Below, piece by piece: positions 9,780 to 14,234 of a stretch of 64,000 bases of DNA (the stretch's first letter is position 1; every line of letters starts with the position of its first letter). This DNA comes from an uncultured bacterium. Lineage in GTDB: Bacteria > Zhuqueibacterota > QNDG01 > DTFT01. Location: the NCBI GenBank assembly GCA_963736115.1, contig CAVTNR010000012.1, positions 224,001 to 288,000 of the forward strand, given 5' to 3'. A model generated the notes under the pieces. The model saw nothing but the letters and a program-made list of their open reading frames with translations, made no database searches and was not told the origin of the DNA. The position numbers and the translations under genes are program-made.

Positions 9780-12518
9780 TCACCCCAGCGTCTCCCGCTG
9801 TTTTCTCAGCGTCGCGAGTTTCTCCTCGAAGTCCGCCTGCTTCCGCCGCTCCTTTTCCACGACCTCCTGCGGCGCGCGACCGATGAAATCCGCGTTGGAA
9901 AGCTTCCCCTCCAGCCCCTTGAGAAGGCTTTCCATGCGGCCGATCTCCTTCGAGATCCGCTCCTTCTCCACCGCGAGGTCGATGAGTCCGCCGAGCGGGA
10001 GAAAAAGCTCGACGTCCCCGATCAGGCCGGCCGCGGCGCCGGCCGGCTTCTGCCCGCCGGACTGTCGAATCACGGATTCAACATTCGCGAGCTTGTCGAA
10101 ATACGCCGCATTTTCCATGAGGAGGCGGCATTTCGACTCATTGCCCCTCAGGATGAGGCCGGCTTTCTTTTCGGGCGGCACGTTCATGCCGCTCCGGATG
10201 TTCCGCACCGCGCCGATGGCCTCCTGAATCAGGCCGACCGCGGTCTCGGCCTCCTCGTCCATCAGGGACGGATCGGTTTTCGGATAAGGCCGGTTCAGGA
10301 TGGTGTGGACTGCTGAAGCCGGATCGGCCGGAACCGGCAGGGACTGCCAGATCGCCTCGGTGATGAAGGGCATGAAAGGATGCCCCAGCCGGAGTATGGA
10401 TTCCAGAACATGGAGCGCCGTGGTCCTGGCCGAGGCCTGCGCCTCTGGATTCCCCGCGTCGTAGAGCCTGGGTTTCGCGAGCTCGAGGTACCAGTCGCAG
10501 TACTCCGACCAGACAAAACGGTATAGCGCCTGAGCGGCCTCATTGAACCGGAACTGCTCGAGGCTGGACCGGATTTCCCCGGTCGCGGCATTGAGCCGGC
10601 TCAGGATCCAGCGGTCCGCGAGGTCGGACCGGCCGGAGCCGCCGGGTTTGATCGGATCCTCCAGAACCTGGTTCTCACCGAGGTTCATCATCACGAAGCG
10701 CGAAGCGTTCCACAGCTTGTTCGCGAACTTCTGCCCCATTTCCACCAGCGGGTGGTCGAAGTGCACGTCTCCGCCCAGGGGCGTCTGAAACACCATGGTC
10801 AGGCGGATGGCGTCCGCGCCGTACGCGGGCACGCCGGCTTTATAGGATGGATTGTGCTTCGCGAATTCGCCCACGGTTTTCGCGTCCGCGCCGTCAATGA
10901 GCCAGATGGGATCCGGGGAGTTGCCGAGGGATTTGGACATCTTGCGGCCGGACAGGTCGCGGATCATGCCGTTGAAATACACGTCGCGGAACGGCGCCTC
11001 GCCGGTGAACTCAAGCGAGGCCATGATCATCCGCGCCACCCAGAAGAAAATGATGTCCGGACCGGTCACGAGCGAGTCCGTGGGAAAGAACGCCTTCAGT
11101 TCGTCGGTCTTCTCCGGCCAGCCCAGCGTGGAGAACGGCCAGAGCCAGGAGGAAAACCATGTGTCGAGCACATCCGGATCCTGCTCGAGCTTCCGGCTCC
11201 CGCACTCGGGGCAGGCCGCGGGCCTGTCTTCGCGGTGCACGGACATGTGTCCGTTTTCACAGGTCCATACGGGAATCCGGTGTCCCCACCAGACCTGGCG
11301 GCTGATGCACCAGTCGCGGATGTTCCGCATCCAGTGAAAATACGTCTCCTCCCACTGCTTCGGATGGAAGCGGATGCGGCCCTGCTCCACAGCGGCGAGG
11401 GCCGGCTCGGCCAGCGGCTGCATCTTCACGAACCACTGATCGGAAAGAAACGGTTCGACGATGGTATTGCACCGATAGCAGTGCGGAATGGGCGTGACCC
11501 GCGGCTCGTCGGACAACACGCGGCCCTGTTCCCCGAGGTCCCGCAGAATCCGCTTTCGGGCCTCGAACCGGTCGAGTCCATTGTACGGGCCCGCGTTCGC
11601 ATTCATTACGCCCCGGTCGTCGATGACCGATATCGCCTCGAGCCCGTGTCTCCGGCCGACTTCAAAATCGTTGAAATCGTGGGCCGGCGTGATTTTCACC
11701 GCGCCGCTCCCCTTCTCGGGGTCGGCATATTCGTCCGCAACGATCGGGATGCGGCGGTTCATGAGCGGCAGGATCACCGTTTTTCCGACCAGTGCCTTGT
11801 ACCGGTCATCGTCCGGATGCACCGCGACCGCGGTGTCGCCGAGCAGGGTCTCCGGCCGCGTGGTCGAGACGCGGATGACCTGGTCCGATCCTTCCAGGGG
11901 ATAGGCAATGGTCCAGAATTTTCCATTGACGTCCGTGGCGGGCGCTTCCTCATCGGCCAGCGCGGTCTGACAGCGCGGGCACCAGTTGATCAGGCGGCGG
12001 CCGCGATAGATCAGTTTCTTTTCATAAAGACGGACGAACACCTCGCGCACGGCTCTGGAAAGCCCCTCGTCCATGGTGAAGCGCTCCCGCTCCCAGTCGC
12101 ATGAGGCGCCCAGTTTGCGCAGCTGCTGGAGTATGATGCCGCCGTATTTCTCCTTCCATTCCCAGACGCGGGCGATCAGTTTCTCGCGGCCCAGGTCGTG
12201 GCGCGTCAGACCCTCGGCCTTGAGCGCGGCCTCGACCCTGTTCTGCGTGGCGATGCCCGCGTGGTCCGTGCCCGGCATCCACAGGGATTCAAACCCGTCC
12301 ATGCGCTTCCAGCGGACCAGCAGGTCCTGGAGAGTGTTATTGAGGATATGTCCCATGGTCAGCATGCCCGTCACATTGGGCGGCGGGATCATCACCGTGT
12401 ACTTGGGTTTCGGGCTTTTCGGGTCCGCATGGAAAAGCCGGTTGTCCATCCAATACTGATACCATCGGGATTCCACTTCAAGGGGATTGTACACTTTATC
12501 GAGAACAGGACGCGACAT
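9780..12518 (-). CDS. valS: Valine--tRNA ligase
   Basis: PPPNVTG-LTMGH (HIGH-type), DHAGIATQ, TTRPETLLGD, DWCISRQ, DVLDTWFSS, KMSKS, C-terminal coiled coil. Confidence 0.97.
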   Translation of the reverse strand: MSRPVLDKVYNPLEVESRWYQYWMDNRLFHADPKSPKPKYTVMIPPPNVTGMLTMGHILNNTLQDLLVRWKRMDGFESLWMPGTDHAGIATQNRVEAALKAEGLTRHDLGREKLIARVWEWKEKYGGIILQQLRKLGASCDWERERFTMDEGLSRAVREVFVRLYEKKLIYRGRRLINWCPRCQTALADEEAPATDVNGKFWTIAYPLEGSDQVIRVSTTRPETLLGDTAVAVHPDDDRYKALVGKTVILPLMNRRIPIVADEYADPEKGSGAVKITPAHDFNDFEVGRRHGLEAISVIDDRGVMNANAGPYNGLDRFEARKRILRDLGEQGRVLSDEPRVTPIPHCYRCNTIVEPFLSDQWFVKMQPLAEPALAAVEQGRIRFHPKQWEETYFHWMRNIRDWCISRQVWWGHRIPVWTCENGHMSVHREDRPAACPECGSRKLEQDPDVLDTWFSSWLWPFSTLGWPEKTDELKAFFPTDSLVTGPDIIFFWVARMIMASLEFTGEAPFRDVYFNGMIRDLSGRKMSKSLGNSPDPIWLIDGADAKTVGEFAKHNPSYKAGVPAYGADAIRLTMVFQTPLGGDVHFDHPLVEMGQKFANKLWNASRFVMMNLGENQVLEDPIKPGGSGRSDLADRWILSRLNAATGEIRSSLEQFRFNEAAQALYRFVWSEYCDWYLELAKPRLYDAGNPEAQASARTTALHVLESILRLGHPFMPFITEAIWQSLPVPADPASAVHTILNRPYPKTDPSLMDEEAETAVGLIQEAIGAVRNIRSGMNVPPEKKAGLILRGNESKCRLLMENAAYFDKLANVESVIRQSGGQKPAGAAAGLIGDVELFLPLGGLIDLAVEKERISKEIGRMESLLKGLEGKLSNADFIGRAPQEVVEKERRKQADFEEKLATLRKQRETLG

Positions 12519-12570
12519 GGACTCCTCGTCATTAGGAATGCGAAGGGGGGAGTTACAAGTAAATCATTGA

Positions 12571-12599
12571 AAGTTAGGGAATTCTGTATTTATTGTCAA
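12571..12599 (-). promoter_or_regulatory. sigma70-type promoter of valS
   Basis: Minus strand TTGACA-17 nt-TAACTT, 52 nt before the ATG. Confidence 0.7.
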
Positions 12600-12658
12600 G
12601 TCGGTAGAAAGTAAATGGAACACGGATGGACACGGGTAAAGAAAAGACTCTAAGCAGA

Positions 12659-12815
12659 CCTTCAATACTTAACAAATCTAATTGCTTGGTCCCGCGTCGT
12701 GGGAGGCGCCTGCATCAACGCTGCATGACGCGCTCAGTACCACAGGAGCAAGAGGCTCCTGCCTCTGCGAGTCCGCGGGCTCTGATCGCTCGGGAGATAT
12801 CTCCCGGGCGATCCA
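12659..12815. repeat. Stack of palindromic elements including one copy of the CCTTCAATA...CTTGGTCCCGC motif
   Basis: Motif copy at 12659-12704; hairpins CAGGAGC/GCTCCTG and GATCGCTCGGGAGA/TCTCCCGGGCGATC. Confidence 0.55.
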
Positions 12816-13032
12816 AAAGCCTTCAGAAGGGAAATATGCGCAAAAAAGCGATTTCATATAGCAATTCATCAATTTCAATTTTATATATAGTATGTCGTTT
12901 CTGTCATAATTATTTCAAAACGGAATATCAATTTCATTTTGTTAATAAATATGTCAATTTGAAATCAGCCGTGACAAAACACGCACGTTCGTAAAGCTAT
13001 AAATTATAATTACATAGAAAAAGCATTCGTAC

Positions 13033-13048
13033 TGGCACCCCGTTTGCT
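13033..13048 (+). promoter_or_regulatory. sigma54 (-24/-12) promoter
   Basis: TGGCAC-CCCGT-TTGCT, an exact match to TGGCAC-N5-TTGCW with GG-N10-GC spacing, in an AT-rich intergenic region. Confidence 0.8.
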
Positions 13049-13058
13049 TATCCTATAA

Positions 13059-13132
13059 ACAGTATCAAAAAACCTCCTTTCCTCACAACCCCTGAAGTCC
13101 GCATTGCCCGCAACGATGCGGACTTCTTTTTT
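13059..13132 (+). ncRNA. Candidate sigma54-dependent small RNA with anti-Shine-Dalgarno seed
   Basis: Lies between the sigma54 promoter and an intrinsic terminator; no ORF; unpaired AACCUCCUUUCCUC at 13071-13084. Confidence 0.6.
13094..13132 (+). terminator. Rho-independent terminator
   Basis: GAAGTCCGCATTG-7 nt-CGATGCGGACTTC stem followed by T6. Confidence 0.85.
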
Positions 13133-13137
13133 CTTCC

Positions 13138-13166
13138 TTGACTTCCTTTGAATTATTCAGTAGCAT
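13138..13166 (+). promoter_or_regulatory. sigma70-type promoter of menA
   Basis: TTGACT-17 nt-TAGCAT immediately after the terminator. Confidence 0.65.
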
Positions 13167-13253
13167 AATTTGTTGTGACAGTGCTGCTTCAGCGGTCCTT
13201 TCCGCGTCTGGTACGGGGAGCCAAGAACCACAGTTGAAACAGGAGGTAACGGG

Positions 13254-14234
13254 ATGCTAATGAATGCCAGCCACCCCGAAGACCGTCCCGGAGCGGCGAT
13301 GCCCGCCGGAAAGCCCTCGTTGATCCGAATGGTGCGCGCTCCGTTTCTTTCATCGATCCTGGCGCCGATCGTTGCGGGAACCCTGGTCGCGGTCTCCGTC
13401 ACAGGCGAATTCCGGCTTGCCGGATTTCTCCTGGCGCTGGCCCTGGGCGTCGGATTGCACGTGGCCACCAACGTGTACAACGACATCTACGACACGATCC
13501 AGGGATCCGACCGCATCAATATGCTCCGCAACGAATTCAGCGGCGGCTCCGGCATTCTGGTGGAACACCCGGAATTCATGAGCCGGATGCGCTGGACGGC
13601 CAGGGGCGGCCTGGCCCTGGCGACGATCGCGACGATCGGATTGATGTTCGTGATCCGGCGATCCCTGTGGCCTCAGTGCCTGGCGCTGTTCACTGTTTCC
13701 GTTTTTCTGAGTAAATACTACACCGCCCATCCGATCAAGCTTGCCTACCGGGGTCTGGGGGAATTTTTCGTGTGGTTCGCCTTCGGCCCAATGGCGGTCT
13801 GGATCGCATCCGTCAGCCAGAACCTGGGATGGCACGCCCTCATTGTCACGGCCATGCCTGCAACCGGCATCAGCACACTCTCCATTCTGCTCATCGGCCA
13901 GATCATCGACCTTCCAGCGGACGAGGCGACCGGCAAGCACGGAATCGCCGTTCGAATGGGAGTGCCTGCCACGGTCCGGGGTTTCGGCGCGGTTCAACTG
14001 GTTCTGGTGCTCAACCTGGCCCTTCTCGCGTGGCGCATGGGGCGGCACGGTTGGCCCGTACTGCTCGGCGCCGTGCCGGTCGCGTTTCTTTTGCCCGGGA
14101 TCTGGAAGCTTCTCGACGGCGGCAGAGCCGACACCGCGGCCCTCAAGGCGGCGGCGAAATCCAACGTCCAATTGCACCTTCTGTTCTCACTGCTGTTCAT
14201 CATCGGCCTGCTGATTTCACTGTCGCTGAAATAG
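13254..14234 (+). CDS. menA: UbiA-family prenyltransferase, 1,4-dihydroxy-2-naphthoate polyprenyltransferase-like
   Basis: RAPFL, NVYNDIYDTIQGSD, FSGGSG, YTAHPIKLAYRGLGE, DLPADEATGK; AGGAGG RBS. Confidence 0.82.
   Translation: MLMNASHPEDRPGAAMPAGKPSLIRMVRAPFLSSILAPIVAGTLVAVSVTGEFRLAGFLLALALGVGLHVATNVYNDIYDTIQGSDRINMLRNEFSGGSGILVEHPEFMSRMRWTARGGLALATIATIGLMFVIRRSLWPQCLALFTVSVFLSKYYTAHPIKLAYRGLGEFFVWFAFGPMAVWIASVSQNLGWHALIVTAMPATGISTLSILLIGQIIDLPADEATGKHGIAVRMGVPATVRGFGAVQLVLVLNLALLAWRMGRHGWPVLLGAVPVAFLLPGIWKLLDGGRADTAALKAAAKSNVQLHLLFSLLFIIGLLISLSLK

Follow-up and report, generated by a model that had tools for sequence, protein, structure and literature searches.

A sigma-54-promoted small RNA family with a pyrimidine-rich, anti-Shine-Dalgarno-like seed predicted in the genomes of uncultured sediment bacteria

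Results

The 64,000-nucleotide stretch of contig CAVTNR010000012.1 analyzed here (the window) belongs to an uncultured bacterium of the Zhuqueibacterota, whose genome assembly (G000) comprises 3.34 Mb and is 87%-complete. In the window, an AT-rich spacer of 735 bp separates valS from a gene of the UbiA family, and inside this spacer sits a unit, at positions 13033-13132, that is very probably a real sigma-54-dependent small RNA (sRNA) gene. The unit opens with a sigma-54 promoter on the plus strand, TGGCAC-CCCGT-TTGCT (13033-13048), which matches the consensus perfectly and has its -24 GG at 13034-13035 and its -12 GC at 13046-13047. The predicted sRNA is ~74 nt long (13059-13132, plus strand), with the 5′ end placed by promoter geometry, ~12 nt beyond the GC element, and the 3′ end by a Rho-independent terminator (13094-13132, plus strand). 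The terminator consists of a 13-bp hairpin (13094-13126), in which seven of the 13 pairs are G-C and the loop has 7 nt, followed by TTTTTT (13127-13132). From ~13059 the plus strand reads ACAGUAUCAAAAAACCUCCUUUCCUCACAACCCCU, then the hairpin and six U. Between the start and the hairpin lies the pyrimidine-rich seed AAACCUCCUUUCCUCACAACCCCU (13070-13093, plus strand), which is unpaired in the fold and conserved among relatives; within it are the ten bases ACCUCCUUUC (13072-13081, plus strand), equal to the 16S rRNA 3′ tail, and the CU-rich tract CCTCCTTTCCTC (13073-13084, plus strand). An earlier note on this DNA had located a perfect sigma-54 promoter, a CU tract and a 13-bp hairpin with six U exactly here, and all three are present.

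Folding of the 74-nt RNA gave the terminator hairpin as the sole structure (-21.3 kcal/mol, z = -5.7, with none of 200 shuffles as good). The first 35 nt of the window's RNA were unpaired in this fold, and the seed had an unpaired probability of 0.99. Since the 16S rRNA of the same genome ends in ...GGAUCACCUCCUUUCUAAGG, the ten bases ACCUCCUUUC are common to the RNA and the ribosome.

The plus strand of the unit contains no open reading frame (ORF) of at least 20 codons, and no conserved ORF was found on either strand. The second result bears on an objection that the earlier note had raised against its own proposal, namely that the tract is only the ribosome binding site, GAAAGGAGG, of a translated mini-ORF on the minus strand. 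Within the window's genus, which is represented by four genomes, GGAGG is indeed followed by a frame, one of six codons with a TTG start in three genomes and one of 25 codons in the remaining genome. However, the TTG stands only 3-4 nt from GGAGG, 13 of the 22 loci of the type to which the window's copy belongs (type A, described below) have no start codon 2-15 nt after the GGAGG equivalent, and the other nine differ in the position of the start and the length of the frame. In addition, the conserved promoter and the covarying terminator all lie on the plus strand. The mini-ORF is thus refuted by its lack of conservation and retains next to no probability.

When 40 relatives were searched at the DNA level, the spacer was found in three congeners, and the CU tract alone gave short matches in five genomes of other genera. 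These five distant homologues came from blastn matches seeded by the CU tract, with no promoter in the match. In each of them TGGCAY-N5-TTGC precedes the tract by the same distance, and the tract is followed by a hairpin, with a different upper stem, and a T-run. The five homologues and the four genomes of the window's genus share one order of elements: TGGCAY-N5-TTGC, ~20 variable bases, AAACCUCCUUUCCUC(A/U)C(A/U)ACCCCU, a hairpin and a T-run. TGGCA and TTGC are invariant in the alignment of these nine sequences, and the sequence alignment also contains invariant columns in the seed. A covariance model of the whole unit (R1, E ≤ 0.01) was applied to 31 genomes of the order and matched 23 of them, in six of the seven families. 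With the window's genome left aside, the matches by family were 4/4 (f1), 11/12 (f6), 2/2 (f3), 2/2 (f5), 2/3 (f7), 1/3 (f2) and 0/4 (f4). A model built without the promoter (R2) recovered the same type A loci, with 22 matches of at least 52 bits in 21 genomes, which indicates that the promoter does not carry the matches. A pattern scan of the genome contigs returned 57 loci, 13 of which were true by R1.

The terminator was supported by covariation. In a 32-row alignment, fitted to the covariance model and therefore favoring the structure, the terminator helix was paired in 98.5% of the cells, ten of its 11 pairs changed on both sides, and its covariation score was reached by none of 500 shuffles. 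RNAalifold on an independent MAFFT alignment called the same helix with compensation at 8 of 11 pairs, and the RNAalifold consensus fold of the 22 type A RNAs left the seed unpaired.

Outside the order, 120 genomes of the phylum were sampled; R1 matched three of them, and only weakly, while the weak matches of R2 were CU-rich tracts with terminators, with a sigma-54 motif at none of the seven that were inspected. One of the three genomes matched by R1 (G141, locus L057), from another family of the phylum, carries three tandem units, at 1037-1132, 1501-1597 and 1865-1959, with weak scores (28-33 bits); in each, a sigma-54 promoter precedes a CU-rich tract, AAAACCCCCUCUACUCUCU, and a terminator closes the unit, an arrangement that recalls multi-copy arrays of the Qrr type. 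At three loci from other families of the phylum (L178, L179 and L180), strong terminators stand downstream of CU-rich tracts such as CCUCCUAUUUCUUUCCUUCCUCCUC and a sigma-54 promoter is missing; these may be CU-rich sRNAs of an unrelated kind or the ends of 3′ untranslated regions.

Rfam 15 gave no match in the window at the gathering threshold. At E up to 10, with Qrr, GlmY/GlmZ, RsaE, ar14 and CyaR included, CyaR came closest, with 17.5 bits where the threshold is 47 (E = 2.9). No paper describing the sRNA family was found in full-text searches outside subscription journals and supplements.

The exact motif TGGCAC-N5-TTGCW occurs four times in the 3.34-Mb genome and its reversed control five times, and for this reason the promoter match does not, on its own, stand out from chance. 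What does stand out is that the relatives conserve the promoter, the spacing, the seed and the terminator, and it is this conservation that settles the reality of the unit. Among the type A loci TGGCA is present in 22/22, and the second element is TTGC in 18/22, TTGA in two, and CTGC or ATGC in two. The genome contains rpoN (Sigma54_DBD, 198 bits, in a frame of 527 amino acids), 19 Sigma54_activat matches, of which ~15 are full-length activators, and many relaxed sigma-54 sites located 40-90 nt before start codons led by a Shine-Dalgarno (SD) sequence. Taken together, rpoN, the activator genes and these relaxed sites indicate that standard sigma-54 promoters are plausibly in use in this organism.

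The aligned model matches split into two groups. Type A comprises 22 loci in 21 genomes, the window's included, with the tract AACCUCCUUUCCUCUCUACCCCUUGU and a hairpin of the GUCCGUG type, while the eight type B loci have the tract AAAAUUCCUUUCCUCUUCCCCUAAAG and a hairpin of the GCCGUUG type. Type A is divergent from valS, identified as an ORF with a tRNA-synt_1 match, in 18 of its 22 loci. The gene on its other side varies (UbiA, DUF6599, radical SAM, S41 or S9 peptidase, DUF438-hemerythrin, GT2, FGGY kinase, UvrC or histidine kinase), and in at least 10 of the 22 loci the downstream gene is convergent, from which it follows that the unit is not a leader. In five of the eight type B loci, mutY follows immediately on the same strand. 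The type B paralogue of the window's own genome, with the seed AAAAUUCCUUUCCUCUUCCCC, is found at G000:C14:77612-77699 (L053:1501-1588, plus strand), directly upstream of mutY, and its terminator is followed by a promoter-like site for mutY, TTGACT-17-TATATT. No unit in this genome other than types A and B has, beside a strict sigma-54 site, both a strong terminator and a CU run of at least 12 nt. A loose scan for any sigma-54-like site with a terminator gave 141 matches, mostly spurious, and was set aside.

These observations uphold part of what the earlier note had proposed about the unit. It had been described as self-contained, sigma-54-promoted, terminator-bounded and free of ORFs, in agreement with its own promoter, the covarying terminator, the absence of a conserved ORF and the convergent downstream genes. 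The presence of rpoN, the persistence of promoter and seed in relatives (five homologues detected by the seed only, and the 23 genomes matched by R1) and the existence of paralogues (the eight type B loci) had been offered as checks, and each was found. The description of the RNA as apparently new likewise agrees with the lack of an Rfam family for the unit.

The downstream neighbor in the window is a UbiA-family prenyltransferase gene (13254-14234, plus strand), a position that is not conserved. The earlier note had called this gene menA and had given it its own sigma-70 promoter. The promoter part stood, as a sigma-70-like TTGACT-17-TAGCAT with nine of 12 matches (13138-13166, plus strand) lies outside the sRNA and would serve the downstream gene; the name did not, and the gene can only be assigned to the UbiA family, with all NCBIfam MenA models below their cut-offs (the best at 99 bits against a cut-off of 264).

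This neighborhood is where an explanation in cis has to be considered, in which the CU tract is the leader or attenuator of the downstream gene, or a CT-rich insulator in the sigma-54 promoter. CT-rich motifs are reported as over-represented in the sigma-54 promoters of E. coli, and the insulator motif reported inside sigma-54 promoters pairs with the SD sequence of the next gene on read-through transcripts (10.1101/086108); the next gene does run in the same direction in the window and for type B. Nonetheless, a strong covarying terminator stands between the tract and the next gene, the next gene has a sigma-70-like promoter of its own both in the window and at the type B locus of the same genome, and the gene downstream of type A changes from locus to locus and is often convergent. 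Furthermore, the insulators described in that source are no more than 25 bp from the SD sequence that they silence (10.1101/086108), while the distance here is ~165 nt. With an intervening terminator, that distance to the next SD sequence and convergent genes, the unit was not assigned to the insulator class as this source presents it, and a function in cis, largely refuted for type A, is very improbable.

Upstream of the promoter, the window contains three degenerate copies of the palindrome TTTCA-N3-TGAAA, at 12913-12925, 12932-12944 and 12952-12964, which begin at -120, -101 and -81 from TGGCA and define a putative activator (enhancer) region at 12913-12964 (plus strand). The palindrome starts 120-125 bp upstream of TGGCA in 17 of the 22 type A loci when up to two mismatches are allowed, and it is perfect in six; every other 6-bp bin contains it in at most five loci. 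A block of the type AAATGTTACA, located 3′ of the palindrome, is a second conserved element present in several families. A site 120-125 bp upstream has the usual geometry of enhancer-binding proteins, for which distances of ~80-150 bp are expected, and TTTCA-N3-TGAAA is inferred to be the binding site of an activator. At -120 to -125 the palindrome was found in none of the eight type B loci. Its fixed distance in type A and its absence there from type B imply that the two types would respond to different activators.

A search of G000 for a wider regulon, in which the palindrome was sought within 230 bp upstream of relaxed sigma-54 sites, returned eight matches, none at -120 and none convincing. 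The survey of neighboring genes found no activator gene adjacent to the sRNA loci. A possible auto-regulated signaling module is found ~35 kb from the sRNA (G000:C12:201270 and C12:201924-202427, both on the minus strand). There, a sigma-54 promoter, TGGCATGGATTTTGTC, comes after a sigma-54 activator gene and ahead of a response-regulator-like gene, and a palindrome-like site is located 98 bp before this promoter.

The 16S-like sequence ACCUCCUUUC is present in 15 of the 30 family members, all of type A. The features found throughout the family are CUUUC (28/30), UUUC[CU]U (28/30), CCUUUC (25/30) and a downstream CCCC (24/30), which give a family-wide core of CCUUUCCU followed by CCCC. The common denominator is therefore a pyrimidine tract and not a strict copy of the ribosomal tail; by its sequence, this tract is complementary to purine runs such as GGGG..AGGAAAGG. 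The earlier note had characterized the RNA as a mimic of the 16S anti-SD sequence. This holds in the window, where ACCUCCUUUC is shared with the 16S tail of the same genome, and it does not define the family, half of which lacks that sequence.

In other families, several type A RNAs (L038, L039, L042, L044, L045, L046, L049 and others) have a 5′ purine run, GGAAAG, AGAAGG or AGAAAG, that can pair with CUUUCC, CCUUCU or CUUUCU of the seed, and the seed CCUUCU goes with the 5′ run AGAAGG. The resulting small 5′ hairpin exposes AAACCUCC in its loop and is absent from the window's copy.

On the other side of the spacer, valS (9780-12518, minus strand; NF004349, 1216 bits) is the divergent upstream neighbor and the conserved genomic anchor of type A. 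Its 5′ leader (12519-12635) is 90-91% identical in two congeners, compared with 66-79% for the rest of the spacer. The leader had no Rfam match, and it may be a regulatory leader of valS. A repeat of ~38 nt at ~12659-12696 has more than ten copies in G000 and the congeners. Many terminators of G000 share the form CCCGCGG-loop-CCGCGGGAGGTTTTTT.

Discussion

The reading that we prefer is that the RNA acts as a repressor that masks SD sites, to which we assign a probability of about 0.58. An enhancer-binding protein located ~95-120 bp upstream, at TTTCA-N3-TGAAA, would activate the sigma-54 RNA polymerase at TGGCAC-N5-TTGCT, and transcription would stop at the 13-bp hairpin and its U-run. The 5′ half of the product, unstructured or weakly structured, would then expose the pyrimidine tract CCUCCUUUCCUC...CCCC, which could pair in trans, as an antisense, with a subset of messenger RNAs (mRNAs) at purine-rich SD regions of the GGGG..GAGGAAAGGAGG type. 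Such pairing would block the entry of ribosomes for as long as the signal of the activator is present. Transcription of the unit, the controlling activator and its signal, the pairing with mRNAs and the identity of these mRNAs are all inferred from sequence. No RNA data set was listed as containing window positions 12500-13700, and two metatranscriptome and two DNA contig sets gave no cover of positions 12900-13300, results that say nothing either way.

The organism offers suitable substrates for such a repressor. The genes of G000 were called with a home-made procedure based on codon-usage log-odds, which is rough, and all statistics on translation initiation regions (TIRs) inherit this roughness. 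An SD 4-mer was found within 20 nt upstream of 1125 of 2591 rough starts (43%), compared with 493 of 2594 internal control windows (19%), and GGAGG peaks 4-10 nt before the start. Because the organism uses SD sites, an RNA with a tract of this kind can pair with many initiation regions. Ungapped pairing reached a score of at least 24 at 43 TIRs for the true seed, and at 7-26 TIRs for six shuffled seeds.

A gene for a GH11-like secreted enzyme is a candidate target of the sRNA on the basis of complementarity, as an exploratory lead. This gene (G000:C31:13361-14935, minus strand), which encodes a type IX secretion tail, has the purine tract AGGGAGAGGAAAGGAG just before its ATG, with GAGGAAAGGAG six bases before the ATG, and the tract is kept in three congeners (L189-L191). 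In these three orthologues, an 11-nt purine run pairs with the seed variant of the same genome if G-U pairs are allowed.

Several results weigh against SD masking. With respect to the RNA itself, CCUCC is missing from 15 of the 30 family members, and in 9-10 of the 22 type A RNAs a weak 5′ hairpin, in which a 5′ purine run (GGAAAG, AGAAGG) pairs with the tract, can cover part of it (-4.4 to -6.8 kcal/mol, z down to -6.7); RNAalifold did not call this hairpin as a consensus helix. With respect to the targets, the excess in ungapped pairing is modest and generic, as it is expected of any anti-SD-like sequence, and therefore it does not identify specific targets. RNAduplex over 2,586 TIRs was no better for the true seed (mean -12.6 kcal/mol) than for shuffled seeds (-11.6 to -13.2 kcal/mol), and its top matches were mostly long looped duplexes. 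The earlier note had put forward GAGGAAAGGAGG, the perfect 12-nt complement, as the ideal target, an expectation that failed. Of the 39 copies in the 31 genomes, the sRNA genes account for 11; the other 28 do not exceed the 38 copies of the reversed control, and the genes behind them share no family. G000 has no copy beyond the sRNA gene. The valS gene is a poor target, with all 13 TIRs examined scoring 11-18 against a 95th percentile of 20 for the genome. Finally, no genes for Hfq, CsrA or RRM_1 proteins were found in the 87%-complete G000.

The type IX secretion cargo genes belong to the same balance. G000 has 79 Por_Secre_tail matches, a number in keeping with a Bacteroidota-related lineage. 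Of these matches 78 were mapped to genes, and a score of at least 24 was reached by 5 of these 78 genes compared with 38 of 2509 others. Mann-Whitney tests of seed complementarity gave p = 0.005 for the type A seed, 0.012 for the type B seed and 0.17-0.47 for five shuffles; this enrichment is exploratory, as the test was post hoc, chosen once two such genes had appeared near the top of the ranking, and SD strength is a confounder.

As a side observation, a perfect GAGGAAAGGAGG (L152, G024:C25, ~1501-1525) precedes a gene for a protein like the ribosomal protein bS21 (rpsU). In a study of Bacteroidia, ribosomal proteins including bS21 reportedly sequester the 16S anti-SD sequence.

The failure of a specific set of mRNA targets to emerge is also what would be expected if the RNA were a protein-binding decoy, whose tract titrates a protein that binds pyrimidine-rich single strands or the 16S tail (ribosomal protein S1 or bS21, an RNase or another chaperone) with no pairing to mRNA. 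The tract is conserved as a sequence over 24 nt, which is longer than most seeds, none of the known sRNA chaperones searched for was found in G000, and the 16S tail is truly matched over 10 nt, all of which would suit a decoy. On the other hand, the 16S-like part is missing in 15 of the 30 members and no candidate protein is linked to the loci by synteny. Known sponges carry repeated motifs, unlike this RNA with its single copy. We consider the decoy unlikely.

Another possibility is that the RNA does base-pair, at places other than SD sequences, such as coding or 3′ regions, that it activates translation by opening a structure, or that it is a sponge for purine-rich RNA. The longest perfect complement of the tract in the genome has 16 nt, AGGGGTTGTGAGGAAA, and covers the stop codon, not the start, of an ORF resembling desulfoferrodoxin (G000:C17:89961, minus strand), with a rough chance expectation of ~0.03; moreover, the conserved ACCCCU located 3′ of the SD-like part is unexplained by SD pairing. 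The 16-nt complement is, however, a single site, and complementarity of the SD type is the commonest feature of the tract, so that pairing elsewhere than at SD sequences appears distinctly unlikely.

A bolder reading, which we regard as a long shot, is that the RNA is no gene-specific repressor and instead modulates translation initiation globally in response to a signal, as a free version of the tail by which the ribosome docks on mRNA, produced at the command of a sigma-54 activator. If this were true, every mRNA with a strong SD sequence could be contested between the RNA and 30S subunits, or the RNA could titrate a factor that handles the 16S tail. The setting would be a Bacteroidota-related lineage that, unlike the Bacteroidia, still relies on SD sites, and paralogues A and B, with their different upstream sites, would feed two signals into one switch.

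Regulation by RNA is almost unstudied in uncultured Bacteroidota-related lineages. The family described here provides a clean and testable case: its promoter class is defined, its enhancer site and seed are conserved, and its two paralogues occupy conserved loci. Should SD sites be masked by the seed as we propose, a further lineage would have anti-SD riboregulators, in this case coupled to enhancer-dependent sigma-54 transcription. Practical benefits will be modest until experiments become feasible in an organism of the group or in a surrogate host.

The family is new, the kind of regulator is known, and the closest parallels are found among sRNAs of other phyla that depend on sigma-54 or carry an anti-SD motif. 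Qrr RNAs of Vibrio depend on Hfq, unlike the situation in G000, where no Hfq was found, and the qrr genes often adjoin luxO, whereas no activator gene is adjacent here. Qrr RNAs are quorum regulatory RNAs that require sigma-54 plus LuxO (PMC10162802), and they match the present family in several respects: stand-alone sigma-54 sRNA genes with an upstream site for an enhancer-binding protein and a Rho-independent terminator, present as paralogous copies within a genome that share a conserved single-stranded pairing region. There is no relationship in sequence or in Rfam, and the seed here is anti-SD-like. GlmY and GlmZ of the Enterobacteriaceae are also sigma-54-driven and are reported as a homologous pair, in which GlmY is a protein decoy and GlmZ an activator of glmS (PMC3045617). 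These RNAs are larger and structured, in contrast with the present one, which has no Rfam match. NcS25 of Burkholderia was considered as another sigma-54-dependent comparison and was rejected, as no sigma-54 motif lies upstream of ncS25.

With regard to the seed, CJnc230 (FlmE) of Campylobacter jejuni is described as RpoN-dependent, with a putative single-stranded anti-SD motif, and represses the translation of its targets (PMC11187230). According to the same source, it arises mainly through RNase III processing of the flgE mRNA at its 3′ end, unlike the RNA described here, which is predicted to be a primary transcript from its own sigma-54 promoter, and the two are unrelated in sequence. The alpha-r14/NfeR1 or 'cuckoo' sRNAs of Alphaproteobacteria have an unpaired and ultraconserved anti-SD motif, CCUCCUCCC, and are likewise predicted to pair with the SD regions of many mRNAs (PMC10746234). 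As that report presents them, they consist of three hairpins with the motif in each loop, whereas one linear 5′ tract and a single terminator hairpin are found here, and the NfeR1 promoter is given without a sigma-54 signature, in contrast with the promoter of this unit (PMC10746234). Without an Rfam match, with an architecture unlike that of alpha-r14 and with a biogenesis unlike that of CJnc230, the sRNA family belongs to none of the Qrr, GlmY/GlmZ, alpha-r14/NfeR1 or CJnc230 groups and stands separately beside them.

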